DNA of 64,000 nucleotides, from the NCBI GenBank assembly GCA_051294375.1, contig CM119267.1, positions 14,935,694 to 14,999,693 on the forward strand. Reading direction: 5' to 3'. A program made the translations under genes and the position numbers. Origin of the DNA: Paraspadella gotoi (lineage: Eukaryota; Animalia; Chaetognatha). This document shows, piece by piece, positions 98-63,710 of this stretch; the first letter of the stretch is position 1; every line of letters begins with the position of its first letter. The notes under the pieces were generated by a model, which saw nothing but the letters and a program-made list of their open reading frames with translations, was not told where the DNA came from and made no database searches.

Positions 98-6793
<6,696 letters not shown>

Positions 6794-9071: not shown

Positions 9072-9731
9072 GTGAGCCGCTTGAAGGGAGGTTTCTCAAT
9101 CACTCGCTCATAAAGGGCTTTTCTCCTTTTTCTCTATATTCTTACTTCTGTTCTTGTAAAATCGTTCATTTCTTCGCTCGTTCGTCCGTTTGTTCGTTTA
9201 ATCCTTTAAAAGTTTATATGGTAGACGGCGAGAGACAAAATAATAACCTTCTGTACATAATCTATCTTAATTCTCATTACATTCATTCAGCGGATCACGC
9301 AAATTTTACTTAACTATACGTTAGCAAATATAGCACGCTCAAATATTCGCATAGAATTTATAGAGAAATACTATATCAGTAGTACGTTAGCATTTAGTAA
9401 TAGAATTTAATTCTCTTGCCGCTTGAATAAAACATTTTACGGGATATCATCCGGCAGAGTATATCAAATGAGCATGTTAGCCGAAGATATATAGTTTTTA
9501 GTGTATCCGGCAACTTTGATCGATTTCTTTTTTACATTCCGCAGAATTAAATTTCTACGAATTAGCATTTAAAATACTCATTTCGTTTTACTCATAAACA
9601 TATTTTTAAAAAAAAGACAAAAAATTCGTTCATCGTTGCCTTCGTAGATATAAATAGATTAAAGATAATTCTCTATGTATACATCGCTTCTTTTCCCACT
9701 CATTTCGTGATAATTATTCGTGAATCACAAG

Positions 9732-10108
9732 GTGATGTTTATCATCGCCGACGACGCTCACCACGTCGTCCATCCTTCACACGGAGCCAACAACGATGAC
9801 GACGACGACGACGATCACGAAGAGGCGCCGACGTCACGCGGACATCTTTTGGGCCACGCGCGGGCGTCACGGACACCATCACCACGGACACCACGGTCAT
9901 CATCACGGTGGTCACCACCACGGACATCATCACGGACACCATCACAACAACATCTTCTGGCCGCCCGTCACCACGGACATCACGGACATCACCATCATCA
10001 TCACGGACACCACGGACATCACGGACACCATCACAACAACGTTTTTTGGGCCGCTCACGGCATCACGGCCATCACGGCCATCACGGCATCACTGGGGCCG
10101 CTGATTGA
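9732..10108 (+). CDS. Alternative terminal exon A of the prepro-protein: His/Gly-rich peptide (frameshifted as assembled)
   Basis: AAG|GTG acceptor, phase 0, VMFIIADDAHHVVHP...DDDDDD, then KRRRR-HADIFWA...HGHHHHGHH...NNIFW/NNVFWAAH spread over three frames by small indels. AATAAA at 10356. Confidence 0.7.
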
Positions 10109-10517
10109 TTGATGCTTTTTCCGCTTTTTTTTAGTCGAATGGATTTATTAGTAATTTAGTGCCTTTATTGTTAATTGCTTGTACGTATATATATATATGT
10201 TCCTTGCCAAACAGATTTGCTTGTTCCGAGAGCTATCACCTGTGTTTGATCCTGATCCGCACGTAACCGCATTTACAATTTAGTATTGTAAAGCAAGAAC
10301 AAATAATTTCAAGCCGCCGTTGATGCGTCATAACTTAATTTTTCTAAATGTTTTCAATAAAACAAAACAAAAAATTAAGTTACAATATTTTGATTACACT
10401 TGAGTTATATCTAAGTAGTCATAGAATCTAAATATTTAAATTTTAAGACAAATCATCTAAAATATGAGGTAATCTTTAACCTTTGTACACTTCCCTAATT
10501 TCTTTGTTCTTCGAAAG

Positions 10518-10853
10518 GTGATATTTATCATCGCCGACGATGCTCACCGCATCCTTCACCCGGAAAGAAATCACAACGACGACGACGACCAAAACGACAA
10601 CGACCACAAACGGTCGAGGCGTTGGGCCCATCACGGGCACCCCCAGGGCCACTGGCCTTACAACATCTTCTGGGCCGAGCATCAGTGGGGCCCCTACGGG
10701 CATCACTGGACCGGTCATCCCCATCACCATCACTGGGGCCATCACGGTCACCACGAATGGGGTCACGGGCATCACGGGCATCATGAGCATCATCATGGCC
10801 ATCATCATGGACACCATGGACACAACGACATTTTCTGGGCCGCTCACCATTGA
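10518..10853 (+). CDS. Alternative terminal exon B: His/Gly/Trp-rich peptide
   Basis: AAG|GTG acceptor, phase 0, intact frame VIFIIADDAHRILHP...DDDD...KRSRR-WAHHGHPQGHWPYNIFWAEHQWGPYG...DIFWAAHH*. AATAAA at 10940. Confidence 0.85.
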   Translation: MIFIIADDAHRILHPERNHNDDDDQNDNDHKRSRRWAHHGHPQGHWPYNIFWAEHQWGPYGHHWTGHPHHHHWGHHGHHEWGHGHHGHHEHHHGHHHGHHGHNDIFWAAHH

Positions 10854-11225
10854 TCGGAGATTTTCTTTTTCCTTTTTTTTTAGCAGAATCTACTATGGGC
10901 CTATCCTTTAAAATAGTTGACTTTTTTTCCTTATCTTAAAATAAAACATTTTAAAGACTCTTCTTCAATGATTTTGTTATCATTTCCGAAAGGAATTCAG
11001 TTTTTTCTCGCTTTTTAAACTCCCATTTCTATATTAAAGATCCTTATTTGTGACCGAGAATTCGTGTGGCATTTATTAACAGTTAATCCAAAGATTGAAC
11101 GGATTTAGAATTTCCGAATGGAAAACTGACATGTGATATTTTTTTAAAAAACCTCCGCTTTGAGTGATTCGCTTCTTGCGCTTGACCTTCCGACCAGCTT
11201 CTCACTTTTTTTAAACAAGGAAAGA

Positions 11226-11326
11226 ACTAAACTAAGCTAAACTAAACTAAACTAAACTAAACTAAACTAAACTAAACTAAACTAAACTAAACTAAACTAA
11301 ACTAAACTAAACTAAACTAAACTAAA
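11226..11326. repeat. (ACTAA)n pentamer array upstream of terminal exon C
   Basis: About 20 near-perfect copies ending ~65 bp before the acceptor at 11393. Confidence 0.9.
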
Positions 11327-11393
11327 CAACCAAGAAATCATTTTTTCTATTCCATACAAACAATAAATTTCTAAACATTTTCGTCGCAACAAG

Positions 11394-11804
11394 GTGGCGT
11401 TCATCCTCGCCGACGACGCCCATCGTCTCTTCCACGAAGACGACGACGACTACGACGACGACGACGAAGTCACGAGGCGCGGGAAGCGTTGGGCGGGACA
11501 CGATCATCATCATCGTCACCATCATCGTCACGAAGGATGGCCGTACAACATCTTCTGGGCCGAGCATCAATGGGGTCCGTACGGTCGTTACTGGACGGGG
11601 CACCGACATCACGGACGTCATTATCATCATCACGGACGTCATAATCATCACCATCACGATCACCATGATCATCATAGTCATCATTACGATCACCGTCATC
11701 ATAATGATCATCATAGTCACGATTACGGTCATCATCACGGTCATCATCATGATCATCATCATCACGGACATCATTATTCCCATCATGGTTTTCACAATTA
11801 CTAG
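11394..11804 (+). CDS. Alternative terminal exon C: His/Asp/Tyr-rich peptide
   Basis: AAG|GTG acceptor, phase 0, intact frame VAFILADDAHRLFHEDDDDYDDDDEVTRRGKR-WAGHDHHH...WPYNIFWAEHQWGPYG...HHGFHNY*. Confidence 0.85.
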   Translation: MAFILADDAHRLFHEDDDDYDDDDEVTRRGKRWAGHDHHHRHHHRHEGWPYNIFWAEHQWGPYGRYWTGHRHHGRHYHHHGRHNHHHHDHHDHHSHHYDHRHHNDHHSHDYGHHHGHHHDHHHHGHHYSHHGFHNY

Positions 11805-12499
11805 AACAAGGATGAACGATTTGAGAAAAGTAGCATGCCTTGACATCGTTTTGTTCAATCGTATGTTTTTTTTCTTTGATATCAATACAAACTTACAAAA
11901 AAAAATATTGAACATTGATAAACTTTTACTTTTGTAACTATAGTTATATTTTTATGAAATATGTATAAGAGGGCGACTATAAATTGAGCAACGAAGCGGA
12001 TAAAAATACAGTTAAGTAACTATTTAAATGTGTGATATTAAATCACTGGGATACATTTTTAAAAATTTTGGTTTATCGTATATCTGTGGATGTCGGACCA
12101 GAGAGATATTTCTGACTACATATCGCTTTTTCTTCATTCTCGAATTTCACAACATCGTTTCTACGAATCCCTTATTCTTTATATTTACAATAATTTTGTT
12201 TCGATCTTTCTGTTATTTTTAACGATTCAAGTCAACGACCGACGAGTTTACATCCGGTTCTCTCTCTCCAATCCTACATTAGTTTTACTTTTTCCCCCCT
12301 TTCAAAGAATACATTATTTTCCGCCGACTCACGGTGCCCCCCCCCCAAAAAAAAAACTCGGGAGGGATTAATTATTCGGGAAAGAGAAGCGAAGAAAATC
12401 GCTGCTGATCGCGAAGTGCAACTTGAAAAATGACTCGAAGAACTCAAAACTTCCAAGCCAAAGATTACAGCTAAGAATGTCAGAATAGAGAGAGAGGAT

Positions 12500-17393: not shown

Positions 17394-17738
17394 AAACACG
17401 CCCTTTGTCACAGGAATCACCTTTTTAGGCTTTTATCACTAGGAAGACCTTCTGTCAGTGATTTCGCAAAATACGCCCTTTGTCACAGGAATCACCTTTT
17501 TAGGCTTTTATCACTAGGAAGACCTTCTGTCAGTGATTTCGCAAAATACGCCCTTTGTCACAGGAATCACCTTTTTAGGCTTTTATCACTAGGAAGACCT
17601 TCTGTCAGTGATTTCGCAAAATACGCCCTTTGTCACAGGAATCACCTTTTTAGGCTTTTATCACTAGGAAGACCTTCTGTCAGTGATTTCGCAAAATACG
17701 CCCTTTGTCACAGGAATCACCTTTTAGGCTTTTATCAC
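17394..17738. repeat. 75-bp minisatellite, about 4.6 near-identical copies
   Basis: Unit aaatacgccctttgtcacaggaatcacctttttaggcttttatcactaggaagaccttctgtcagtgatttcgca; no spacers. Confidence 0.95.
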
Positions 17739-21481: not shown

Positions 21482-21779
21482 AAACTTATTTATCCAAAGA
21501 AAGGAATGCTAACAATATAACCAAAGCGAACTAATTATACCAAAAAAAACCAAAACGAACGAACCGTACCAAAGTTTTTTTAAACCAAAGCTCAATTAGT
21601 CAATCAATCGATCACAATTCTTTTCTGGGATTGAAAATGCGGTTCTTGATGAGCAGCCACGGGTCGCTGACTCTGGCGCATACGGCGGAACCGTCGGAGA
21701 CCAGGGGTAAGTTGAGAGAGAGAGAGAGAGGAGAGCTAAAATAGCTTCGGGCGGGGAAAGAGAGAGAGATCGACGAGAG

Positions 21780-21820
<41 letters not shown>

Positions 21821-22851
21821 GTAATAAAGAGCCGCTGGAATTGCCTAAGTTCCGATGGGTGTGGTCGTCTCTAATCCTTGACGTTTCATGCATGCGGGAA
21901 TTGAGACAGCATCGCGCTGCATCAACGGCATCAACGGCATCAACGGCATCGCGCTGCACCTTGCGCCTCATTCGCGTCACGTGATATCATCTATTCGTAT
22001 CACGTGCTTTTCTGATTCGAATTCGGACCGAGATTTGATTCGTTCTGTCGCTGACGATAATGACGACGACGACGACGACGACAATCGTGTTGACTCTTCC
22101 TTGTTTACTTAAGGGGACTGTGTCTTTTTTAATTGGCCCTTATTAACTAATTTATAGTAATGATGCAATTTTTTTTCTCCCATCATGGCCTGAACCTTGG
22201 TCTGCTCTACATAAAACCGTTTTCAAAAATTTTTTACCTCATCATACAGCTGAGATATAAACAGAAAGGTTTTTTTTGCAAAAATATCTTCTTCTTCCAC
22301 TGGATTGACCTGATAAGGTCCAAACTTTGTATGCATGTTCTTTTAGTCCTAGAGAGAAATTCACCAAACGTTCGGGATAATCGTTTTTTTAATGTTTTCA
22401 TTATTTTTATTGTTCTAAGGTCCTTAGTAAGGAATTTGGTTTTAATTTTAGGGTTTTTGGGAAGGAAGTTGCCAATTCAATTTTACCTACGACAACAATA
22501 ATAACCTTATCTTTTCGTGTTTTTTTAAATGGTTAAATTTTTTTTTGTTAAGATTTAAAACTTTCTTCAATTCTACTGTCTTTGAAATTATCTTAGAATC
22601 TCAATTAGCGAAAAAAAAAGATAGTAAAAGAGAAATGAAGGCAATGATGGCAAAGAAAGAAAGTAATAAATGAATGAAGAAAAAAAAAAAGAGAAAACCC
22701 TTAAAAATGAAAAGAATCAATCGGGATATACACAAGTTTAAAAAATTAAAAAAGCACGAAAAAGAAAAGAAGAAAGATTTTCATAAAAAGGAAAAGAAAG
22801 AAACTGCGAGACACAGGCAAAAAAATAAATGGTTTTTACGCCGGACGTCAA

Positions 22852-22903
<52 letters not shown>

Positions 22904-24486
22904 TTTCGGTTTTTTTTTGTCTTCTTTTCGTCTGCTTGATCCTTTTTCTCGTTTTCGCCGCCACTGGCGCCATCATAGTCGTCTATGACGTCAAACTTTT
23001 TTGTTCAATCACCGCCGCCGCGTCCTCTTCCGGAAGCGCCAACGCCTAACTTAACCATAGTTGCTCTCGCTTTTGGAGCCAACAACTTCTCTACGATTCC
23101 AACCACTTCATACCATCCTTCGTAATCATTCCTCTCACTTTCTTTTTAACTATCCTCACGTCCCTAATACACTTCGATCTCACTACCAAATGTCAACTTT
23201 CCTACGCCTCTCCACCGCCACTCCAGCCACCGGACCACCCCCACGACCGCCTTTTTCCTCGACACCAAATCGCTCTCACTCATTTCCGGTTCTTAAGTCC
23301 ACTCCGGTTTGAATCTTCTTCCCCGGAAACGAATTCTTGCTTCTTTCACGCTTCGACCTTTCTTTTTTTCTTGCTCTTTCTCCTCTTCAATCTTTATCTT
23401 TTCTCTCTTCCCTTGCCTTGCTATTTCCAAAACCTTCCTCCATGCTTTTTTCCTTCTTTCAGCTACCAAGAGTGTACCTTTCAATTCTTACATGCTTTCT
23501 TTTCTTTCCCTCTTCCTTCTCACTTTTTAAAATTCTTTTCTATCTTCTTCTATATATCTTCTCTTACTAGATAAGTTTTTTCTTTTTTAAACCGAACCAA
23601 AGTTGATCAAATCTACCTCAAAGTCTAAGGCGATTCATTTCGTTTCGTTGTTAACGAGATATATGTTGCGGAGGGAGTAGAGGGGAAAAAACGTGAAGTT
23701 CATTGATCCGATTACCCACGACCCTCGCCCACCCTTCTTTCTCACCCACGCCCACGAAGAACCCACACCCACAAAGCCCCTTGTACACTCCCCGAAACTC
23801 CCGTAGTCTGACTCACTCCTTTCGCTCACTGTCGGGGGGCAAAAAGGCTTTTCTCCAAATTGTTTCAGATAAAAATCTTTTTTTTATTTTCTCGCTTTTT
23901 GTTCGACTGACGGGAGTTTCTTTTGCGTCGGATGAAGTAACTGATTATTACGAGCGAAAATACGAGGGAGAGGGAAAGCTGATTGTTGTGGTTCAGACTT
24001 TTTATCCGGAAACATCTGTATCGATATTAGGCACAAACTGATTAAGTTTAAAGGGTTCCGGTTTTGGCAGGACGTTAAAAAGGTCTTTTGATAATTTCCT
24101 GCTCAGTGATCATTGGTCCTTTTACATAAATCAACAAGCCATGAATGTTTGCTATCACTTAGCCAAGGCGAAGTTTCGTTGCTTTTTAATTTTCTTGTTT
24201 CGTCAGAACATAAAACTTTCTCTCGCTTTCCGATGTCTCTTCCGCCCCTAATTTGAAACCCCTGCGCTAAAAAGGAACATTCTACGTCTCCTTTTCATTT
24301 TTTTCACTTTTCACTTCGTGAATTTGGCATCGAAAACGTGTCCACTCTTGGTTTGCCGTAATTCTTGCTGACATTTTGCCAAAATCGCCGAAAAAAAAGT
24401 CCCATCATTGATATCCTTTTTTTGACGTAAAGTCGCGTAAAACTTTTTCCCCAACTTTCACTTCTCTCTTTCTCTCCCTCAATCAC

Positions 24487-24572
<86 letters not shown>

Positions 24573-25634
24573 CTCACTCTGCCTCTCTCTCTCTCTCTGC
24601 CTCTCTCTCTCTCTCCTCTTGTCTGTCTGTCTTTTCTACAGCTTTTTCACCGACTCATGTGAAACACAAACATCATATTTCTCATCATTTTTTAGGAGGT
24701 CCTACTTTTTTCTCCATTTTATAATTGACGCCCAAATTAATTTTACATTTAATCACATAATCACATAAAAGCCGAATGAAACTATAAAAGCAAAAAAACA
24801 AATAGAAAAACATCAAAATTCATTAATTTAAAATTTTAATTCTCGCCCGCGTATTGACAGCGCGATTCGCTTCTCAGCCGCTAGGGTTCATTGTCAAGAA
24901 TTTGTTTACGAAAAATATTAGTTTTCTCTTTGACTTTAAGATGTCCCAACCGCGGTTTCTGACGGTTTTGTTTTGATGACGTCAAGTTGTGAAAAAAATA
25001 TTTTATGAAAACATTTTTTTTAAATCGACCATTTGGAATTTGAATTTTCGACATTTACTAGATCTTAGTTGAATCAGCGATTTTCCGAATTATCTCAAAT
25101 TGAATTTGTTATATTTTTGTGTGATATTTCCAGTGAATTTCAGTCGGTTCAGCGACGTCTTGTGAGGCGAGAAAGACGGACGAAGTGAAGCGTTTCACAC
25201 CCAAGGCGTTTAAGACTCCCGGGCGATCGACTCGCGGGAATGGAGATCTGGGTCAGGATGGGTCAACCGTCGAGTGAAGCATTTGTCTCGGATGATTTCA
25301 CAGAAGCGAAGGAGCCGATCACTCGTTGATATTGAGAGCGTTGCGTTGAGAGAGAGAGAGTGAGAGAGTGAGAGAGTGAGAGAGTGAGAGAGTGAGAGAG
25401 TGAGATAGTGAGAGAGTGAGAGAGTGAGAGAGTGAGAGAGTGAGATAGAGAGAGAGTGAGCGAGAAAGAGGGAGAGTTGACTATTTTTTTACTTGTCCGC
25501 GCCGACCATCAGCTGAGTGATCGATCGCGTAGTTCCTTGTTTCACATTCCTCTGATTTAATCATTCTCTCGCTCAGTCTCACACCTCGCATCGCCGATGG
25601 CGCCATCTCCTCCAACTCTAGTGAAATCAACGAT
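21482..25634 (+). repeat. Copy 1 of a ~4.2 kb inverted duplication (empty-site copy)
   Basis: Collinear reverse-complement match to 30835-36015 along its length, e.g. cgccatctcctccaactctagtgaaa at 25601 vs tttcactagagttggaggagatggcg at 30845. Confidence 0.9.
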
Positions 25635-25823
25635 CTTTTGTTTATTTCCGACGAAATCTAACCGAGTTTTAAAGTCGAACGAAGAAAAGGACGAAAATAA
25701 ATTGAAAATCGATCTTTTTCAGATCGAAATCTCGCTAAAGAAAATATTTTGAGGCGTTCAGGGAGTTTGACGAAACTGGGCGGAGATGCCTTGGAGAGAG
25801 AGAGAGGAAGAGAGAGAGAGAGA

Positions 25824-25867
<44 letters not shown>

Positions 25868-28222: not shown

Positions 28223-31200
28223 GCGAGAGAAGAGAGAGGAGAAGAAGACAGACAGAAGAGAGAGAGAGAATTTGCCAGCGCCGGTTTACTATTTACGATT
28301 TTTTTTTTCTTTTTCGAATTAGGGTTTTCCGGATGACTCAATATTTAAATTGGGCTGACACACACATTAAAAAAGTTTAAGTTAGCTCAGTCGGTTCGAG
28401 TTGAAACTTTTTTTTTCAGAGCGAAAAAAAAATACTGAGAGCTTGGAATGACGGACGGACGAAAATCGAACTGGTGCAGAAATAAATCGATCAATGAAAA
28501 GGTATTGTGAGCGATGGATATAAAAATGGACAATGTATCTTCGCGCAGATGGACAGCGAGACCACAGGTTCTTTCATTCTTTTCTGCGTCCCTCTAAGGC
28601 TTGAATAGCGCGGTAAGTCGTGAGACCAGATCCATAAAAATCCTGACATTATGAAGACCGCACCACATTTTTTAGCCATTTAATACTGCACGACCCTCAA
28701 GCCACTCGTCAAGTTTCCCAAAGATGATTTTTTTTCGCGATCTTGATTTTTTTAATCTTCAAAACTTCATAATGTTTGTGAAATTTTCTCCTCAATCTAT
28801 AAACATTCTCAATCCCTAGATACGAAGTCGAAAACAGTGACTCTGGAAGAGACCGGGAATCTGTGATGCGATTTTTGATCTGGGCTGTCAATGACAATGA
28901 CACACATTTTTTCTTTTACCACCCCTCTGTTCTTCACCTATCGTCTAGCCGTCGATCTGTCTGTTTTTACCCTTGTCTGTCTGAATGTCTGTTTATGTGG
29001 TTGTCAGTTTCTCTCTGTAAAGCAGATTAATGAAAATATTACTTCCCAGTGCTCGCCGGAATACTACTAAAAGTTTGTTATTTTTAAATAATTACCAGTT
29101 TTTTTCTAAATTTAATCTAGCGAAAGCTTGTCATCTGAAAATCGTAACGATTTTTAACTCCTCAAGTCTTTTAGCCACACGATTCCCGTGTTTATTATCA
29201 ACCGAATTTCGATCCCTGATTTCCATTTCTGTTTTTTTTTGGCAAAATCGGCGAATTTTTCTCGAATCCGAGTCGCTCTAACCCAAATTCCTTATCAATT
29301 AAGTGTCGCGGCCTTTCGGGCATTTTTATCTTTGGCATCCGCAATTTACTCGAGCTTCCGTCGCCTCACTTTCTGACTTCGTTTTTGACTTTTCGAATTT
29401 ATTGCTTCGTATTTTAGGCCAAGTTTCAACGTTTATGTATTACTTCGCGTTCGTTTATAGTAAAAGTTTTTATAATCAAAATCTCTACTTAAAATTTTTG
29501 GACAAATGCGTCTCATGAGGCCACGCCCAAAACGTAACTCTCATCGGGGTCCACCCGTAACGTTATCGCCACATTCCGCCATCATTACCGTCACATTCTT
29601 GCACCAACTTAATTATTTATGACTCGCCACTTAGGATAAGCGACATTCATTGTCTCTCGTCCTCAAAACAAGACGAACAATCGTCAGTGCGAACTGTTTC
29701 TTTCCGACCGTTCCTGACTGTTTTCGCCGTTCCTAATCCCATCCTTCGACGAATCGAATCCAATTAATTGATATTTCTCCCAACGACGTTTATAAAATTC
29801 GCGCCGATGACGTCGGGAACCCGCGAATCGCCGTTCGGTCAATTAGTCGATCGCCCGCTCGTGATTTGTCGAAACTTTCTTTTAACCTCGATGCTATTGG
29901 GCGTCATTGGAGGGGAAGAGGGAACGAACGGAACAGATAAAATATCACGCGTGAGCCCTCGACTTACTCCCGCTCAGTGAAACTGNNNNNNNNNNNNNNN
30001 NNNNNNNNNNTGAAAGTTCTTTTTTATGTAAAAAGAATGAAAAAAAAAACGACGCGGAATGGTTCTAAAATATTAGAAAAAAAAAAAAACCCCGAAAAAC
30101 AAAAACAAGAAAACAAAACTAAAAAGGCAAGGACTTGGACGGAGAACTAAAACATAAAGTCAAATGTATCCTTAAATCTGACCCTTGACCTCGAATGAGT
30201 TTCCGTCGTTTCATTAAAACAGTCGCATTTCTCGTGTCTAATTTCCATTGCGATCGACGACCCCGTCAGCATCGCTACAGCCGCTCGATACGATCGTGGC
30301 CGTTTGCCTTTTTATTTTATTTTTTTTTTGTGAAAAAATTTTAACTCTACTCTTCTCTCTCCTCTCTCTCTCTCTTTCTTTCTTCTTCCACTTCTCTTCT
30401 CTCTCTCTCTTCTCTCATCTCTCGCTCACCTCTCTCTTCTTCTCTCTCTCTGCTGTCTTCTGTCTTCACAAACGTGTGAGAGGGCCACCCCCAGAGCAAA
30501 AAACACAGTTCTACCTGGGAAATCCAGAAAACTCTTTCGAATGAAACACTTCTCGCTTCTCTCTCCTCTCTCTCTCTCATCTCTCTCTCTCTCTTCTCTC
30601 TCTTCTCTTCTCTCTCTCGTCTCTCTTCCTCTCTCTCTCTCCACATCTTCACACCCAAGTTTCGCAAACTCCCCTGAAACGCCTCAAAATATTTTTTTAG
30701 CGAGATTCGATCTGAAAAGATGATTTTCAATTTATTTTTTCGTCCTTTTTTCTTCGTTCGACTTAAAACTCGGGTTTAAGAATTTTTTTTTCGTTTCCGG
30801 AAAATTTTAAAAAAAAAGGGGGAAAAGAAAAAAAATCGTTGAATTTTCACTAGAGTTGGAGGAGATGGCGCACATTTCGGCGATGCGCAAGGTGTGAGAA
30901 CTGAGCGAGAGAAAATGAATTAAATCAGAGGAATGTGAAACAAGGTTAACCTACGCGAATCGATCACTCAGCTGATGGTCCGGCGCGGACAAGTAAAAAA
31001 ATATCAACTCTCCTCTTTCCTCGCTCACTCTCGTCTCTATCTACTTCTCAGCTCTCTCACTCTCTCATCCTCTCCATATCTCAGCATCCTCTCACCTCTC
31101 TCATCTCTCACTCTCTACTCTCTCACTCTCTACGCCTCTCTTCTTCTTCAACGCACCAACGCTCTCAAGTATCAACGAGTGATCGCTCCTTCGTCTGTGA

Positions 31201-31922
31201 AATATCTACGAGACAAATGCTTCACAACTCGACGAGGTTGACCCATCTGATGACCCAGATCTCCATTCCCGCGAAGTCGATCGCCCGGGAGTCCCTTTAA
31301 ACGCTTGGGGTGTGAAAACCGCCTTTTCCTTGTTCCGTCTTTCTCGACTCACAAGACGGTCGCTGACCGAACTGAAATTGCACTGGAAATATCTAAGGAA
31401 CAAATATAACAAATTAATTTGAGAATAAATTCGGAAAATCGCTGATTCACTAAGCAATCTAGTAAATGTTCGAAAATTCAAATTCCCAATGGGTCGGGTC
31501 GATTTAAAAAAAAAAATGTGTTCATAAAATATTTTTTTTCTACCAACTTGACGTCATCCAAAAAACAAAACCGTCAGAAACGGCGGTTGGACAATCTTAA
31601 AAGTCAAAGAAAAACTAAATATTTTTCGTGACAAATTCTTGAACATGAAACTAGCGGCTGAGAAGCGAATGCGCGCTGTCAATACGCGGGCGAAGAATGT
31701 AAAATTTTAATTAAAATGGAATTTTGATGTTGTTTTCTATTGTTTTTTTTTGCTTTTATAGGATTTCATTCGGCTTTTATGTGATTATGTGATTAAATGT
31801 AAAATTAATTTTGAGCGTCAATTATATAAATGGAGAAAAAAGTAGGACCCTCCTAAAAAATGATGAAATTATGGCACAGCCGGGTTGCCTGTGATGCCCA
31901 TTGGGATGAGGGCATCTTCACT

Positions 31923-32007
31923 GTTTGGCTTTGGGGCTTCCGACCCTCAGTGACGCCGTCCATCACTGCGCGGTTACACCTAAGGACGGTCTCCGCTTTT
32001 GCAAAGC
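31923..32007 (-). ncRNA. Twister ribozyme, permuted type P5 (copy in left repeat; noisier sequence)
   Basis: Minus strand: GCGG aGA CCG TCC tta GGtg TAA CCGC G CAGTGA..TCACTG AGGG T CGG AA GC CCCa. Same element order as the right-hand copy. Confidence 0.65.
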
Positions 32008-32432
32008 AGAGGGAAGTGTTAGGACTGTGGAATGGAACACTACGCCTGGAGTGGGTGTTTCCCCGCTCTGAGCCAATGGATTTGGCTGACGGATGGTGGA
32101 ATGTGGGGGCGAGTGAATATACCGCCACAGGATCCACACCGGGCCAAGACAGAATCACTCAGGTTCTCAAGCCTGAGAGGTGTCTGACAAGACTGTTACC
32201 ATAGTGGGAGAGAGAGAGAGAGCGCTGAGTTGTGGGGGCATAGTGCCGTTTTGTCGTAGCGTACCCCAGGGGCATAGGCGTTTGTCGTAGCGTACACCAA
32301 AGTAGGCAGGGCAAGGCGTTTTGTCATAGCGTACCTGAAGAAGGTTGCGTGTCGATAGTAGGGCCCTCCACACTCTATGGCCAACAGCCGGGTTGCCTGT
32401 GATGCCCAAATTTAGGGATGGGGCATCTCAAT

Positions 32433-32520
32433 GTTGGCTTTGGGGCTTCCGACCCCTCAGTGACGCTCCAGTCACTGAGGCGCGGTTACCCTAGGCTGGG
32501 ACGGTCCTCGCTTTGCCAAC
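32433..32520 (-). ncRNA. Twister ribozyme, permuted type P5 (copy in right repeat)
   Basis: Minus strand: GTTGGC aaa GCG(a)G GA CCG TCC cagccta GGG TAA CCGC GC CTCAGTGAC tggagc GTCACTGAG GGG T CGG AA GC CCC aaa GCCAAC. This reads as P5a, P2b, GA, pseudoknot strand, P1 hairpin, U^AA, P2a, GC, P3, P4a, loop U-CGG-AA-GC, P4b, P5b. Both pseudoknots (CGG/CCG and GC/GC) are complementary. Confidence 0.8.
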
Positions 32521-35500
32521 GCAGAGGGAAGGGTCGTTAGGACTGTGGATGGAGACACTTACGCCTGGGATGGGTGTTCCCCCTCTGAAGGCCAATGGAT
32601 TTGGCCTGACGATGGTGGATGTGAGGCGAAGTGGAGATATACCGCCACAAAATGATATTTTGTGTTTCCACATGAGTCGGTGAAAAAGCTGGTAAAAAAG
32701 ACAGACAAGACAGAACGAGAGAGAGAGAGAAGGCAGAGAGAGAGAAGAGAGAGAGAGAGGTAAAGAGAGAAAGAGAGAGAGAGAGAGAGAGTGAAGCGAG
32801 TGAGAGAAAGAGAAAGTGAAAGTTGGAGGAAGAAGTTTTAACGCGACTTTACGTCAAAAAAAAAGGAATCAATGATGGGAACTTTTTTTCGGCAATGTTT
32901 TGGCAAAATGTCAGCCAGAACGGGAGAACCAGAGTGGACCACGTTTTTCCGATGCCAAATTCAACGAGAGTGAAAAGTGAAAAAATGAATAAGGAGACGT
33001 AGAAATGTTCCTTTTTAGCGCAAGGGGTTTTCAAATAAGGGGCGGAAGAGACAGTCGGAAAGCGAGAAAAAATTTTTTATGTTCTGACGAAAACAAGAAA
33101 TTAACAAAGCACGAACTTCGGCCTTGGCTAAGTGATCAGCAAACATTTCATGGCTTGGTTGATTTATGAAAAAGGAAACCAATGATCACTGAGTAGGAGA
33201 AATTATCAAAAGACCTTTTACGTCTGCCAAAACCGGAACCCTTTAATCTTAACAAGTTTGGTGCCTAATATCGATACAGATGTTCCGATAAAGTCTGAAA
33301 ACGCACAAAACAAACAGCTTTCCCTCTCCCTCGTATTTTTCGCTCGTAAATATCAGTTACTTTCATCCGAGGCAGAAAAGAAAACTCCCGTCAATCCGAA
33401 CAAAAGCGAGAAAAATTAAAAAAAAATTTTTAATCTGAAACATTTTGGAGAAAAGCCTTTTTGCCCCCCGACAGTGCAGCGAAAGGAGTGAGTCAGAGCT
33501 ACGGGAGTTCGGGGAGTGTACAAGGGGCTTTGTGGGGTGGGGTTCTTCGTTCGGGCGTGGGTGGAGAAAAGCAAAGGGTGGGCGAGGGTCGTGGGTAATC
33601 ACGGATCAATGAACTTCAGGTGTTTTTTTTGTTCCCCTCTACTCCCCTCCGCAACATAATACTCTCGTAATAACAACGAAACGAAATGAAATCGCTTAGA
33701 CTTTGAGGTAGATTTGATCACTTTGGTTCGGTTTAAAAAAGAAAAAACTTATACTAGTAAGAAGAAGATATATAGAAGAAGATAGAAAAGAATTTTAAAA
33801 GTGGAGGAAGGAAGAGGAAAGAAAAGACATGTAAGAATTGAAAGGTAACACCTCTTGGTAGCTGAAAGAAAGGAAAAAAAGCATGGAGGAAGGTTTTTGG
33901 AAATAGCAAGGCAAGGGAAGAGAGAAAAGATAAAGAATTGAGAGAAGGAGAAAGAGCAAAGAAAAAAGAAAGGTCGAAGCGGTGAAAGAAGCAAGAATTC
34001 GTTTCCGGGGAAGAAGATTCATAAACCGGAGTGGACTTAAGAACCGGAAATGAGTAGAGCGATTTGGTGTCGAGGAAAAAGGCGGTCGTGGGGGTGGTCC
34101 GGTGGCTGGAGTGGCGGTGGAAAGAGCGCGTAGGAAAGTTGACATATTGGTAGTGAGATCGAAGTGTATTAGGGAAGTGAGGAATAGTTAAAAAAGAAAG
34201 TGAGAGGAATGATTACGAAGGATGTATGAAGTGGTTGGAATCGTAGAGAAGTTGTTGCTCCAAGCGAAGCCATAACTAGTGGTAAGTTAAGGCGTTGCCC
34301 TCGCGGAAGAGGGACGCAGGCGGCCGGTGATTGAACAAAGAAAGTTTTGACGTCAATAGACGACTATGATGGCGCCAGTGGCGGCGAAAACGAGAAATAA
34401 GGATCAAGCAGCCGAAAAGAAGACAAAAAAAACCGAAAGGAACGACGACGACGACGAGACGACGACGACGAACGACGAGACGACGACGACGACGAACGAC
34501 CGTTGAAGTCCGGCGTAAAAACCATTTATTTTTTTGCCTGTGTCTCGCAGTTTCTTGTCGTTTTCGTTTTTATGAGAAATCGTTTCTTGCTTTTTCTTTT
34601 TCGTGCTTTTTTTTAATTTTCTTTAAACTTGTGTATATCCCGATTGATTTTTCATTTTTAAGGGTTTTCTCTTTTTTTTTTCTTCATTCAATTAATATAC
34701 TTTCTTCTTTGGCCATCATTCCTTCATTTCTCTTTTACTATCTTTTTTTTTTTCGCGTATTGACGATTCTAAGATAATTTCAAAGACAGTTAGATTGAAT
34801 GAAGTTTTAAATCTTAACAAAAAAAATTTAAACGCAATTTAAAAAAAAACAACGAAAAGATACAGGTTTATTGTGTCGGTAGGTAAAATTGAATTGGCAA
34901 CTTCCTTTCCCAAAAACCCTAAAATTGTAGAAAAACCAAATTCGCTTACTAGGACCTTAAGAACAATAAAAATAATGAAAACAATTAAAAACGATTATCC
35001 CCCGAATCGACTTTGGTGAATTTCTCTCTAGGACTAAAGAACATGCATACAAAGTTTGGGACCCTTATCAGGGTCAATCCAGTGGAAGAAGGCAGAGATA
35101 TTTTTGCAAAAAAAAACCTTTCTGTTTTATATCTCAGCTGGTATGAGAGGTAAAAAATTTTTGAAAACGGTTTTATGCTAGAGGCAGACCAAAGGTTCAG
35201 GCCATGATGGGAGAAAAAAAATTGCATCATTACTATAAATTAGTTAATAAGGGCCAATCAAAAAGACACAGTCCCCTTAGTAAAACAAGGAAAGAGTCAA
35301 CACGATTGTCCGTCGTCGTTCGTCGTCGTCATTATCGTCAGCGACAGAACGAATCAAATCTCGGTCCGAATTCGAATCAGAAAAGCACGTGATACGAATA
35401 AGATGATATCACGTGACGCGAATGAGGCGCAAGGTGCAGCGCGATGCGTTGATGCCGTTTGATGCCGTTGATGCCCGTTGATGAGGCGAATGCGTCTCAA

Positions 35501-35605
35501 TTCCCCCGCATGCATGAAACTCAAGGATTAGAAGAACGACCAACATCGGGAACTTAGGCAATCCAGCGGCTCTTTATTTACTTATCTCTCTCTTCTCTCT
35601 CTCTT

Positions 35606-35636
<31 letters not shown>

Positions 35637-38600
35637 CCCATCGTCTCTCCTTCTCCAGGCCCCTCTTTCACCGCATTCCACTCTCTCCTCCCTCCTCCAC
35701 CCTTCTATCGACCGGTCTCTCCTCTGCTTCGATTCTCACTCTCTCTCTACTTCCTTCTCAACTTCCGCTGGTCCCGGAGGTTGCTCGGCCGTATGCGGCC
35801 AGAGTCCAGCTACAAGGGCTGGCTCATCAAGAACCGCATTTTCAATCCCAGAAAGAATTGCTGATCGAATGGATTGACTAATTGAGCTTTGGTTTTTAAA
35901 AAAGGAAACTCTTGGTACGGTTTCGTTCGATTTGGTTTTTTTGTTGGTATAATTTAGTTCGCTTTGGTTATATTGTTTAGCAGTTCCTTTTCCTTTTGAA
36001 TAAGTTAAATAAGTTTCTTAGACAAAGCGAAAATTTCTTCCAAATGAAACCAAAAACTTTTTGTAAAAAAAAACAAAAAACAAACAAACAAACAAAGCAA
36101 TACAAGATTAGTTTTCCTCTTTTTTTAAAAAATCCTTGATTCGTCGATGTCATTGTCTAAAGTCCAACTGTTCATGAGTTCGCGAACAGGATAAGAGGCC
36201 AAAACGACGGAAAGTCCGCAGCTGGAAAGGCCAAAGGCTTGACAATTAGTAATGGAGGTCATTATGTCATTATGTTCGTAGCCAATGTTTACTAAATCAT
36301 CGTTATCGTGGTTGTAATCTGTGTGAGTCTTTCGTGCTTATTTTAGTCAAATTAATGAGGAATTATCGGTAAAAAGTTATATTGAAACTAATCTCTATCC
36401 AAGTGAAATAAATACTATCTCATTTCGTGATCTTCGTCCACTGACTGTTGCACTGTTGCTGAATGCTGATGTCTTCATGCATCGCTGACAAAGTCGTCGT
36501 CTTAGTCATCATCGACGTCGTCGTTCATTAATGAGGAAACTCTTTAGATTCTCTCGGTGTTCGCCCCGAGGCCGAACAAGTCACCCTCGCTGATAGAAAA
36601 AGTTCCGCGCAGCTGTGAAGGTCAAATTCGTGACTTTTTTTGTGCCGAAAAGGGGGAACGTTGGGGTCATAGCCCTGGTTGTCGTGGTCATTGATATGGT
36701 GAAATTCTTCGCCGCGATAATATCTTTCACTTGGATGATTCCTAGGATGTCGCTCATCTTTATCAACCAAAACTTCGTCGTCGGCGTCGTCGTCGCCGCT
36801 TGGGCCAATCATCGATCACGTGACACATTTCACAATTCGTTTTCTCACCGTTAATCTGATTAAACGAAATCGAGTGAAATCGAACAAGAAAAAGAGACTT
36901 GGAGTTTAGCGACAGAAATGGGAGATGATGAATTGTCTCCCTCCCCGAAACATCACTCGGAGAGGGCGTTACGGTCGTTCTCTCTCGTCTCTGTCTTCTC
37001 TTTCTCGTCTACTCTTCCGTCGTCGTCGTCTTCTCTCGGTTCTTGAGTCGGTCAGTCATGTGTCTCATCTCTGCTCTCTCTTCTGCTCTCTCTGGTCGAG
37101 GTAATTGGAGCGGAATGTTGAAATACTCTCGGTGCTTAGCAACGGCATCCGCCTTTTTCGAAGTTGAGAGGTGAAGTGGATTTCGAAGTGTACGATGTTC
37201 ATTCGTTCGTTAACTAAGTAAAAAAAAAAACAAAAACCGAACATAAAAAACAAAAGAATTGGAGAGTTGTGTTGTGTAATCATATACGTATGCTTTGATT
37301 CTGTTGTTATTTTGGGAAATTTAAAACCGCCGTCAGGATATCTAGTAATCGCCAGTCGCTTTGTAATCCTCTTCACTGCATTCCACTCGAACCCGGAGAG
37401 GAGGGGGGGGGACGAAGTGATGTTCCAGTTTAGAAACAAATAACGATTGAGACGAAAAGAAACAAAGTCTCCTAATGAAGAAACTAAATAAATATGTAAC
37501 GAAAAAAGTTTCCGGTCATTCGAAGGGTTTTTTTTTTTTTTTTCTCGTCTGACGTCTTTTGTTTTTTTGGTGAAGTTTTTCGCGGATTTGAAGAAAGAAA
37601 AAAAGTCTACTTTGTGACGAGAAAAATCTTTTTGTTTTCCTTTTTTTTATTGGCGATTCACTTAAAGGCAAGAAACAAATAGTTTTTAACTGAAAATTGC
37701 TTGTTTGGTTATGCGTCATAACTTTGTTTATTTAAAATATAGCAATCATTATTTTAAAAGCACCATGTCAGATAGTAATTAAAAAAAAATAATATGAATC
37801 GAATTGTATACAATGTGCAATTTACAAGTTTTCGAGCAGCCGCTGACAACTTTTCTTTATTTTTTCCGACCGCAGAAGCGAAAAAGTCAAAAAAAGAAAT
37901 CGCGACTAAAATTCGCAAAAAACCTTTTTTGCGTCTTTGGCGCCAAATTGCGATCGACGCGCGAAGCTTTTGGCGAGAAATCCCCGACAGTATTTCCTTT
38001 CGGCGATTATTTTAACTCTTACATTCTTTTATATTTCATTAATTTAGTTAATTTTTTAAATTTAATTCCTCAAACGCATTTTTTTTTTCAATGCATAAGT
38101 TTTCCTTCATCGAGGGATTTACGCTCGATCGGTACATGGCCTCGAGAAAAAAAATACTCGAAACCAAATAAACTCACTCTTTCTCCCTCTCTCTCTCNNN
38201 NNNNNNNNNNNNNNNNNNNNNNNNNNNNNNNNNNNNNNNNNNNNNNNNNNNNNNNNNNNNNNNNNNNNNNNNNNNNNNNNNNNNNNNNNNNNNNNNNNNN
38301 NNNNNNNNNNNNNNNNNNNNNNNNNNNNNNNNNNNNNNNNNNNNNNNNNNNNNNNNNNNNNNNNNNNNNNNNNNNNNNNNNNNNNNNNNNNNNNNNNNNN
38401 NNNNNNNNNNNNNNNNNNNNNNNNNNNNNNNNNNNNNNNNNNNNNNNNNNNNNNNNNNNNNNNNNNTTTACACGAACTTTTAAAGGGACTTGTACGCGAA
38501 AAGATTTTTTCACTTTTTTTTCCTCGCTTTCTTTATTTATTGTCTTTTTGGTCATCAACGTCGTCATTGATCGTCGCTTCTTCCGTCGTCGCTATCATCG

Positions 38601-61095: not shown

Positions 61096-62751
61096 CCGCC
61101 CCTCCGTCTCCTCCGCCTCCAGTCGCCGTCACCGTCCCCGTCGCCACGCCCACCACTCCGGCCTTTAACTGCCTGTCGATCTCCCCTCTGTACCGCCTTA
61201 ATCGGTTCAAAAACTTGGCGTGTCTCGCTACTTCGTCCTCTTCGTTATTCTCGTGCTCCACCACATCTTGGAATGCTTCGTGAATCCGGTTTTAGACGTC
61301 GACGAAAACTTGGCCATGATGTGAGACCCGTCAACGCTGCCCAACGCCTCCACCAGCTTCTCCCCATCTCCTCCAAGTGCCTCGTCGACAACTGGAGCCC
61401 CTCGTAAGGCCCTCGATCCATGCCCGAGTAGGTACTCTCCAGGGTATAGCTCATCTCCACGTTGAACTCTTTCCAGACGACCACTCGGGCCGTCGACGCC
61501 CTCTCCTTCTGCACCATGAAGGACGAATTGCGAAGAGCGAAGGCGGGCGCCGTCTCGTGGAGGATGAGCGGAAGTTCCGGTAGGAGAGAGGCTCCTTCTT
61601 CTTCCCGTCCTTCTTTCGACTCCCACGTCAGATTCCCGCTGCAGCCGTAGAGGAAGATGTTCTTGAAGAGAGAGTGGCCGTGGAGGTCGCAGAAAAGCTT
61701 GACCCGTTTGCGGGACACGTGGTGGATGTACTGGAAGAGGCCCTTGGCGTTGTAGATGGTCGGGTGGAGATCGGGGTTCGGGTTTAGCCACCGGCGGTTC
61801 AGGTCTTCGCCTGCGGGAAATTAAGTTTAATTTATATTATGTTATCTCTAACTGGAGGGCTCTGGGCCTAACTAAGTCTCACGTCTATCGAAAACGGAAA
61901 GGCATGGGAGGTGAATAAGTATATTTCATATCTGGGTTCTATACTCTATCCGAAAATATAAAAAGGTCCAAAAAAAGGGGAGAGAGAAAGAGCTAGAAGA
62001 GAGGGAAAAGATGGACTGGCACCTAAACTTGTAATCGCAACCCGAATCCCCGTGAGGAGGATGAGAGGGAGGAGGAAAAGAGAGAGAAATAGATGTGAGC
62101 TTTAGTAGTAGCCCGCGTAGTCTACCGGCCTTCGATTCTGGTTATGTTATACCCAAAACATCAAACAATAATCTCCACATTCTAACCCGTTAAAGACGTT
62201 CGGTGACATCCGTTGATGACCCCGTCGGGTTCAGCATCGGCACAACCTTGAAGATGAACTTGTCCCGCAAATACTTCGCTCCTTCGGCATCACTCAAGAG
62301 GAAGTTGACGCAACCCTAGGCGCGAAAAAATAAGAAAAACAAATTAAGAAACTAAGCAAACACACTAAGAGAGTTTGCCGCTTTCTTATCCCGCACTTGC
62401 ATGATCCACGAGGCGTTGGACTCTCCCCGATGCACCCGCGCCGTCAACACCACGTTAGTCTCGCTTCCCGACGCGATAGGCCATCGGACCGCCAGCGGCC
62501 GGCATGCTCGTGATCGTCAGCACCGGAACGTCGTTCCGCCGAAGTCTTGCAGAGAATTTGACGTCGGTAGAAGATTGTCTTTTTGTCGATGTCTTTTTCC
62601 TTTTTTCGGGATGAAGATGAATTGCATACGGAGTCGTTCAAAAATTTGAGTCTTTTTTTTTCTTTTCCTTTTTTTCAAACTCTTTTTTTTTCTCCGATAC
62701 TTTTTTGTTTCTTTTCTCTCTTTTTCTCAAGACCTCTACCTCCTGATCTCT

Positions 62752-62850
<99 letters not shown>

Positions 62851-63710
62851 CATCTCTCCCTCAAAGTCCTCACCCCTTATCCACGCCACAGCGCCGAAAA
62901 ACGTGTAAGGATAATGAAAGGCGATGTAGCAGACGTCGGCGGAATAAGGAAACCGAATCTCGAAGGAGAGAGTGTAGAAAACTTGTCCGCTCGCTTCTTT
63001 CCTTTCCCGTTGTAGATGGTGTTGCGGAAGTAGGTGATGTTGTCGCCGACGCGACGCCAACACGGCCGTCCCACCGTCGCCTCCTCCACCGAATACATCA
63101 CCGGCTGCATCCCGTGGTTGAACTGGGAGATGCGCTTCTCCAGGTTCATGATGTTGAACCTAGAATGGGGGGGAAGTTTTCTGTTGGATTAAATTTTGAA
63201 TGATTGCGGGAACTGACAACCTATATCGTATCATTTGTGACTTATTTGATGAAACATTAATGAAACTTTAATTAGTTTTTAAAATCGATTAAACAGTTAC
63301 AAATGAAATCAGTCGTCAGTTGCAGGTATCCCCGCAAAAAAAGTTCAACGTGTCACGAATTTTGTTTCGGTCAACTATAAAACATAACTATAAAAAAAAT
63401 TAATCTTTCACCTGTAAGGAACTTTTTCGGCCCATGTGCGAAACTTCGAAATAAAACCATTGGTGATGATGTCCCGTGTTGATGTCGTTTCTCAAGAATA
63501 AGTTGTAGTCTCTCTCGCCGACCTGCATTGGTTTGAACTTTACTTTTCATTAATTTCATTAATTACATTACTACATCTTAACGCTGTGATTCCCTATCAT
63601 GATTTCTAACATCGCTTCAGTGACTCACCTGACAGACTTTCCGAAGATTTCCGCTTTCGAAGCGACTCTCGAACTTGAGCGGGGCTCCTCCGCCCATCAC
63701 GACGATGCGG
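60943..63710 (-). CDS. AGTPBP1: Cytosolic carboxypeptidase (M14D, Nna1/CCP1-CCP4 type tubulin deglutamylase), 3' exons; the 5' part is probably beyond the window
   Basis: Exons on the minus strand: 63710-63629 ([17 protein letters not shown]); 63522-63412 ([23 protein letters not shown]); 63159-62874 ([27 protein letters not shown]); ~62640-62397 ([19 protein letters not shown]); 62315-62187 ([15 protein letters not shown]); 61810-60943 ([22 protein letters not shown]). Several 1-bp frameshifts. Confidence 0.88.

Follow-up and report, generated by a model that had tools for sequence, protein, structure and literature searches.

We describe a short non-coding element in the genome of the chaetognath Paraspadella gotoi, at 31870-32649 of a 64,000-nt stretch of contig CM119267.1 (assembly GCA_051294375.1, positions 14,935,694 to 14,999,693 of the forward strand; this whole stretch is called the window, and all coordinates refer to it). 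It is a mobile, non-autonomous, high-copy long terminal repeat (LTR) element with many insertion sites, and each of its LTRs carries on the minus strand a motif resembling a type-P5 twister ribozyme. The reading that we prefer, with a probability of about 0.55, is that of a Gypsy-dependent LTR retrozyme, in which the twister fold would cut the RNA into a 512-nt unit that is then closed into a circle and copied in trans. An earlier note, made from the letters of the window, had proposed a twister-based LTR retrozyme at this place. The mobile LTR element and the twister-type fold in each LTR have stood up to analysis, whereas the motif is missed by both covariance models applied to it. A primer-binding site (PBS), tRNA-like boxes for RNA polymerase III (Pol III), a stunted palindromic P1 helix and the absence of a recognisable polypurine tract are features that the note did not mention.

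A repeat family with many insertion sites

The 780 bp consist of two direct repeats, delimited by repeat alignments, that enclose a core. Read along the minus strand, they are a 5' LTR of 274 bp (32376-32649), a non-coding core of 246 bp (32130-32375) and a 3' LTR of 260 bp (31870-32129). Both LTRs start with TGTGGC and end with GCCATA, an imperfect inverted pair, and copies of a target-site duplication, AAAT on the plus strand, adjoin the 5' LTR at 32650-32653 and the 3' LTR at 31866-31869. Sequence and alignment thus confirm the dimensions and flanks first described. The claim that the element is non-coding also holds, as the longest open reading frame (ORF) with an ATG is 51 aa and Pfam gave no match for the four frames of the element, which belong to the 140 window ORFs (of 158) that were compared. 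In addition to a (CT)n tract and an 8-bp hairpin, the core contains three copies of a 15-nt motif at 32245-32335, the number of which varies among contigs; a packaging or dimerisation signal is a possible role for it. A second hairpin follows the twister-type motif in each LTR (32397-32426 and 31889-31916) and precedes a conserved 25-nt LTR end.

The two repeats are 81% identical by BLAST, and their global alignment has 238 identities, 10 mismatches and 39 gap columns (248 aligned bases). The region around the element is itself duplicated in inverted orientation (21482-25867 versus 30563-36016, about 4.4 kb, 84-87% identity, with differences that are mostly indels), and global alignment of the duplicated flanks gives 505 identities, 17 mismatches and 58 internal gap columns. 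As the LTR differences are mostly indels, like those of the flanks, much of the divergence is probably assembly error, and the insertion is probably a recent one. Errors are frequent in the window copy, and the window contains 14 N gaps.

Within the inverted duplicate, flank alignment finds an empty site (24560-24800, minus strand) in which the flanks are contiguous and the element is absent. The duplicate is either a paralogue or the other haplotype, and the site is empty under both; a haplotype left unmerged would mean that the insertion is polymorphic. The element-free flanks join at 24674-24679, with two 2-nt indels relative to the predicted empty site, so the letters of the duplication are AAAT or ATAT. 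Of the AAAT duplication originally claimed, the length of 4 bp is therefore upheld and the exact letters are not, as judged at the window insertion.

Sequence words of the element occur in ten public runs, nine of which come from one organism and three studies; the tenth, a biofilm run (X10, share 0.04), was excluded. No RNA run is listed among the ten, and X9, which may be one, is not counted here as a sign of expression. From four short-read runs (X1, X2, X5 and X9), 904, 2101, 725 and 205 contigs align to the element. Summed depth, which is not a copy number, reaches 7.8e5 (X2) and 2.4e5 (X5) on the element and 0-5 on the flank. The element end at 31876 is joined to mixed AT-rich flanks in 13 (X1), 68 (X2) and 49 (X5) contigs, with an agreement of 0.54-0.65, and the matching position 32382 is joined to mixed flanks in 27 contigs of X2 and 15 of X9.

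Signals expected of an LTR retrotransposon are present in part. A PBS-like stretch at 32358-32370 (minus strand) lies 5 nt after the 5' LTR. In comparison with the tRNA-Trp PBS printed for an element of another organism in the supplement of Kojima 2024 (PMC10886601), it agrees at 9 of 13 positions in the window and at 11 of 13 with the contig variants at 32367 (all four runs) and 32365 (X1 and X2 only), each found in one or two contigs per run. When the PBS region was matched to 120 viral loci sharing 14 bases with it, three tRNAs were obtained, none of them a real match. The tRNA-Trp-like PBS lies on the ribozyme strand and identifies the minus strand as the sense one.

Upstream of the ribozyme motif, each LTR also has degenerate tRNA-like boxes. 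The 3' LTR carries a degenerate head at 32030-32075 (minus strand), with a box A-like motif at 32075-32063 that agrees with the Helenus form (TRGCY..YGG) and a box B-like motif at 32038-32030; the pair, 37 nt apart, was recovered in 1 of 20000 shuffles by a pattern written post hoc. In the 5' LTR, a degenerate box A-like motif lies at 32582-32594 (minus strand) and its box B is broken in the window copy; contigs drop single bases at 32554 and 32559 of this region. ARAGORN finds no tRNA gene in the 64-kb window, and Rfam no tRNA match at E<=10 on 921 bases. Runs of four T are absent from the sense strand, which lends weak support to the idea that Pol III may read through both LTRs.

The twister-type motif in each LTR

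Motif 1 lies at 32433-32520 and motif 2 at 31924-32006 (core 31996-31933), both on the minus strand and both delimited by pattern, folding and alignment. In each repeat, the order of parts is a P5 strand, AAA, P2b, GA, CCG, a short P1, UAA, CCGC and GC, followed by the P3 hairpin, GGG, the loop U-CGG-AA-GC, CCC, AAA and the second P5 strand. In motif 1, these parts are P5 at 32520-32515/32438-32433, P2b-GA-T1b from 32511, P1 at 32501-32489, UAA at 32488-32486, then the P3 hairpin, with P4 and L4 extending to 32442. Cleavage is predicted between U and A at 32488/32487 and at 31976/31975, a distance of 512 nt, as the earlier note had it, and the predicted unit between them spans 31976-32487 of the minus strand.

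The core positions given for twisters are the U-A cut site, an A-G sheared pair, the T2 pseudoknot, a T1 pseudoknot of three pairs, the U and two A of L4 and a P4 of 3 bp (PMC5408937). All the core positions listed there are present in both motifs. Both repeats carry UAA, GC, GA, T1 as CCG/CGG, the loop U-CGG-AA-GC and P4 as GGG/CCC, and both pseudoknots are complementary in both LTRs (three pairs in T1 and GC/GC in T2), a statement about complementarity alone, within this element. The claims made earlier for these parts hold in full. T1 differs from the GGG/CCC of the Rfam P5 consensus by two pairs, changed on both sides with pairing kept. No contig difference, among those listed, falls within L4/P4 (32442-32455), at very high depth.

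The helices around this core are less regular, and here the complete set of twister elements first described needs amendment: the core positions stand, but there is an extra base between P2 and GA in both window copies and P1 is stunted. P2 is CCGC/GCGG, as claimed, in the repeat at 31870, with four pairs plus the extra base, while the repeat at 32376 has GCGA. Conversely, the closing P5 helix GTTGGC/GCCAAC is that of the 32376 repeat and not of the 31870 repeat. The extra base 32506 is missing in 58% (X1), 72% (X2), 74% (X5) and 98% (X9) of contig depth; its loss restores the spacing between P2 and GA, but the first P2 pair is then a C-A mismatch.

A structural pattern that combines the fixed core bases with pairing in P2, P4 and T1, written after the sequence had been seen, finds just these two sites in the 64 kb, none in 5000 shuffles of the LTR and none in 30 shuffles of the window. 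The same pattern recovers two Rfam-positive P5 controls (L005 and L007) and passes 42 of 56 phage and bacterial loci that were fetched with generic patterns; 15 of the 20 control loci sent to Rfam reach the P5 gathering score. Folding gives a z of -4.1 for motif 1, with P3 and P5 formed, and of -1.9 for motif 2, with P2, P3 and P4 formed.

Outside the window, the exact 22-nt motif has no match in the JGI metagenomes. A gapped motif with the T1 letters of the element is found in 35 metagenome and four viral loci, none of which passes the structural pattern, and thus no relative was found outside this organism among the loci searched. Several phage type-P5 twisters (L165-L168, L175, L180, L183, L190, L192, L193, L198, L202 and L212) share the P3 hairpin with the element.

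P1 is the most unusual part. Contigs from X1, X2 and X5 read UCCUAGGG over P1, without the insert seen in the 5' LTR copy; most copies have a palindromic P1 of 8 nt. As a hairpin, it has a folding energy of +2.0 to +2.7 kcal/mol (-2.8 kcal/mol for the 5' LTR copy), versus -8.3 to -18.7 kcal/mol for the P1 of 13 Rfam-positive P5 twisters, while two copies of it would form a self-duplex of -11.0 kcal/mol. Self-pairing of this kind is possible for any hairpin; the informative feature is therefore the instability of the P1 monomer. In amphibian retrozymes, hammerheads with a weak stem and a palindromic loop cleave far better as dimers (PMC7229834). We propose by analogy that cleavage may be best when the two LTRs of one transcript combine into a double twister, although we put this at just under even odds. 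P1 is conserved in twisters but dispensable for cleavage, also in mini-twisters (PMC5408937), and a dimer may thus be unnecessary.

A predicted cycle and its alternatives

The cycle that we propose is modelled on that of plant retrozymes (PMC4918200). Pol III would initiate at the tRNA-like head of the 5' LTR and read through both LTRs, and the P1 palindromes of the two LTRs could pair, which may aid both cuts. The minus-strand RNA would then be cut at the U-A in each LTR, releasing the 512-nt unit. Because this unit has no terminal redundancy, we propose that a host RNA ligase closes it into a circle, as in plant retrozymes. Priming by tRNA-Trp at the PBS would allow a helper reverse transcriptase to run for more than one round of the circle, rebuilding two LTRs, and a helper integrase would insert the DNA into AT-rich targets, duplicating 4 bp. 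We infer all the RNA steps from the arrangement of the element. Once the cut ends are ligated, the junction is identical to normal LTR sequence, hence the circle-junction reads proposed in the earlier note would not be diagnostic on their own. In the boldest form of the proposal, which we regard as doubtful, the element would be the first animal twister LTR retrozyme: a Pol III-driven terminal-repeat retrotransposon in miniature (TRIM) that, through its palindromic P1, cleaves only as a double twister, so that full-length RNAs are cut while solo LTR RNAs and circles stay intact.

Several findings weigh against a circle-forming twister retrozyme. Some concern the element as a transposon: Pfam finds no reverse transcriptase or integrase, and hence no helper gene, in the ORFs scanned; a polypurine tract is not apparent at the core end that adjoins the 3' LTR, where 9 of the last 20 nt of the core are purines and contigs are seven to eight gaps off the window; and box B, here GTTCC, is one to two bases off the Helenus GGTTC, with short spacing. 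Folding of the 512-nt unit is only modest, with a z of -1.55 (6 of 100 shuffles) and 54% of bases paired as a circle, as compared with about 70% in published retrozyme RNAs (PMC4918200). Others concern the ribozyme itself. The common contig form has three P2 pairs plus the C-A mismatch adjoining the active site, a mismatch that recurs in 1 of 32 control motifs; alterations of P2 may perturb the active site (PMC5408937). The minimum-energy fold of motif 1 lacks P2 and P4, and the opposite strand of motif 1 folds equally well, so that folding does not indicate strand. Finally, the covariance-model search suggested as a check in the earlier note came out negative: Rfam gives no twister at gathering score in the 64 kb and none at E<=10 on 921 bases (two chance matches), and our own P5 model, trained on 23 P5 twisters of phages and bacteria and run with filters off, gives five weak matches at E<=10, neither motif among them.

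The strongest competitor accepts an active twister and dispenses with the circle. It is that of a linear cycle, like that of the Helenus and Cassandra TRIMs. Cleavage in the 3' LTR would here do the work of a Pol III terminator, and any RNA that escapes cleavage in its 5' LTR would retain about 120 nt of terminal redundancy for ordinary strand transfer. In its favour, tRNA-like boxes lie upstream of each ribozyme, the sense strand offers no T4 terminator, Cassandra transcripts run from one LTR into the other and carry short duplications at their ends (PMC10886601), and the 512-nt unit is not strongly self-paired. We nevertheless judge it unlikely: the two ribozymes have the same sequence, with nothing obvious to spare the 5' one; paired P1 would favour both cuts; and the ordinary route needs the polypurine tract that is not seen here.

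Somewhat less probable is that the motifs are slow or dead twister relics in the LTRs of an ordinary TRIM, without a role in transposition. The failure of both covariance models, the C-A mismatch in P2, the lack of a stable P1 and an alternative fold of motif 1 that hides P2 and P4 all speak for such decay. They are countered by the integrity of all catalytic and pseudoknot positions in both LTRs, and by the absence of listed contig differences from L4/P4. Moreover, with a long P1 and fixed T1 letters the models would be expected to fail here, and this may be why both motifs are missed.

An origin from Penelope-like elements is decidedly improbable. Under this explanation the element would be a non-autonomous Penelope-like derivative and its repeats pseudo-LTRs formed by target-primed reverse transcription, in keeping with the missing polypurine tract, with the tie between described animal retrozymes and Penelope-like elements (bioRxiv 10.64898/2026.07.22.740005; PMC7229834) and with the minimal, dimer-cleaving ribozymes typical of Penelope-linked retrozymes. 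However, the termini are sharp and identical at many sites, and the TG start, imperfect inverted end, 4-bp duplication and tRNA-Trp-like PBS at the LTR boundary are of Gypsy type, whereas published non-LTR retrozymes are without LTRs and PBS and have longer duplications (PMC7229834). An assembly chimera or contaminant, which the error-rich window with its N gaps and inverted duplicate and the lack of any contig spanning the full element among those aligned from the four runs might suggest, is hardly credible for a family found in nine runs of one organism from three studies, at very high depth and with many flanks in the four runs aligned, and with one X5 contig set that extends over the left flank.

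The window contains other features at a distance from the element. Exons of a cytosolic carboxypeptidase 1 gene lie at 61163-63688 (minus strand) and are 72% identical to one JGI protein; for the exon at 61248-61790, identity is about 50% with proteins of vertebrates and brachiopods and about 40% with those of oomycetes. In a tree of 21 rows, for which 20 of 68 matches were chosen by hand, the sequence groups with animal sequences (100/98), on a long branch sister to them, alongside the one JGI protein. Pfam identifies Kunitz and thyroglobulin type-1 domains at 2986-4397, within exons at 2986-5181 (plus strand), after which a transmembrane segment is likely. Taken by themselves, the tree and these domains make a divergent animal the probable host, in line with the animal-like genome of the earlier note. 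At 9714-11937 (plus strand), three short genes or exons in tandem encode very histidine-rich peptides with a common WA(E/A)H motif, and a near-perfect 75-bp tandem repeat of about 4.6 copies occupies 17394-17738.

Comparison with known systems

Plant LTR retrozymes (PMC4918200) are the closest model for the layout. They share with the element a ribozyme motif in each LTR, a non-coding core, a 4-bp duplication, a PBS, cuts placed so that the unit has no terminal redundancy and a GC content of about 55%. They differ in using type III hammerheads, a unit of 600-1000 nt and a tRNA-Met PBS, where the element has a twister-type motif, 512 nt and a tRNA-Trp-like PBS. The element also has an animal host, tRNA-like LTR boxes and no visible polypurine tract, and its circle is predicted whereas plant circles have been observed. 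Rfam finds no hammerhead in the 64 kb at gathering score or on 921 bases at E<=10.

In size and LTR signals, the element resembles the Helenus TRIMs and TRIMp3 (Kojima 2024, PMC10886601), which are likewise short non-coding animal LTR elements with a 4-bp duplication, tRNA-like LTR boxes and a Gypsy-type tRNA PBS (tRNA-Trp in Helenus-2_SyJa). With 780 bp and its 4-bp duplication, it is within the size of Helenus (TRIM under about 1.3 kb). Its tRNA-like part is more degenerate, a polypurine tract is not seen and a twister fold follows the boxes. The word 'twister' has no occurrence in the accessible text of Kojima 2024 (PMC10886601), and a search of the accessible supplement, in both orientations, for three variants of the twister loop returned three passages, none in a twister context; line breaks or other T1 letters could hide motifs there.

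In the same supplement, the LTRs of two wasp elements, Helenus-2_SyJa and Helenus-2_SyUm, show by eye two hammerhead core boxes after the tRNA-like part, in a position equivalent to that of the twister-type motif here. The 5' part of our LTR also resembles Helenus-2_SyJa by eye. Both wasp LTRs have a tRNA-Trp PBS and a TGTGG start, and a ribozyme goes unmentioned in the accessible text of PMC10886601. The wasp Helenus-2 elements may be unrecognised animal LTR retrozymes.

As a ribozyme, the motif follows type-P5 twisters (RF02684; PMC5408937) in the order P2b-GA-T1b-P1-UAA-P2a-GC-P3-P4-L4, in the core bases and in both pseudoknots. It departs from RF02684 by its 8-nt palindromic P1 in place of a hairpin of 6-11 bp, by swapped T1 letters, by the C-A first pair of P2, by an added closing P5 helix and by a score below detection. 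Twisters have been reported in the Perere-3 and RTE long interspersed nuclear elements (LINEs), in viroid-like circles and in viruses (PMC7761336, PMC5680766, PMC6765202, PMC8501958, PMC11722881, PMC10085705, PMC13725137, bioRxiv 2022.07.19.500677). The animal LINE twister shares with ours a weak or missing P1 and service to an animal retroelement, but it is a single type-P1 motif that trims the 5' end of an autonomous LINE, without LTRs, paired ribozymes or a circle.

The non-LTR retrozymes of animals (PMC7229834; bioRxiv 10.64898/2026.07.22.740005) are non-coding and have paired ribozymes, and the weak palindromic stem and dimer cleavage of the amphibian ones (PMC7229834) recall the P1 of the element. 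They are unlike it in being tandem arrays of type I hammerheads, 170-400 nt long and linked to Penelope, without LTRs, a PBS or a 4-bp duplication.

On these comparisons, the element appears to combine traits of LTR retrozymes, Helenus and twisters while it lies outside the published definition of LTR retrozymes, having no hammerhead, and fails the Rfam twister test. That the combination was undescribed, as the earlier note supposed, is borne out in so far as neither a twister in an LTR element nor a natural dimeric twister was found in the full-text literature to 2026, with subscription papers and supplements mostly outside it. In that literature, retrozymes with LTRs belong to plants and use type III hammerheads, and those of animals are non-LTR and use type I hammerheads (PMC7229834; bioRxiv 10.64898/2026.07.22.740005). 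An animal LTR form with a twister, if real, would break both of these links. It would imply that any small self-cleaving RNA could turn a TRIM into a circle-forming element, and would give eukaryotic twisters a second role beside that in Perere-3. A twister that needs a dimer would be the counterpart of the double hammerhead. Together with the boxes of the wasp Helenus-2 elements, such an element would mark the ribozyme as an exchangeable module of animal TRIMs. As Rfam misses these motifs, similar families may be hidden in other genomes.

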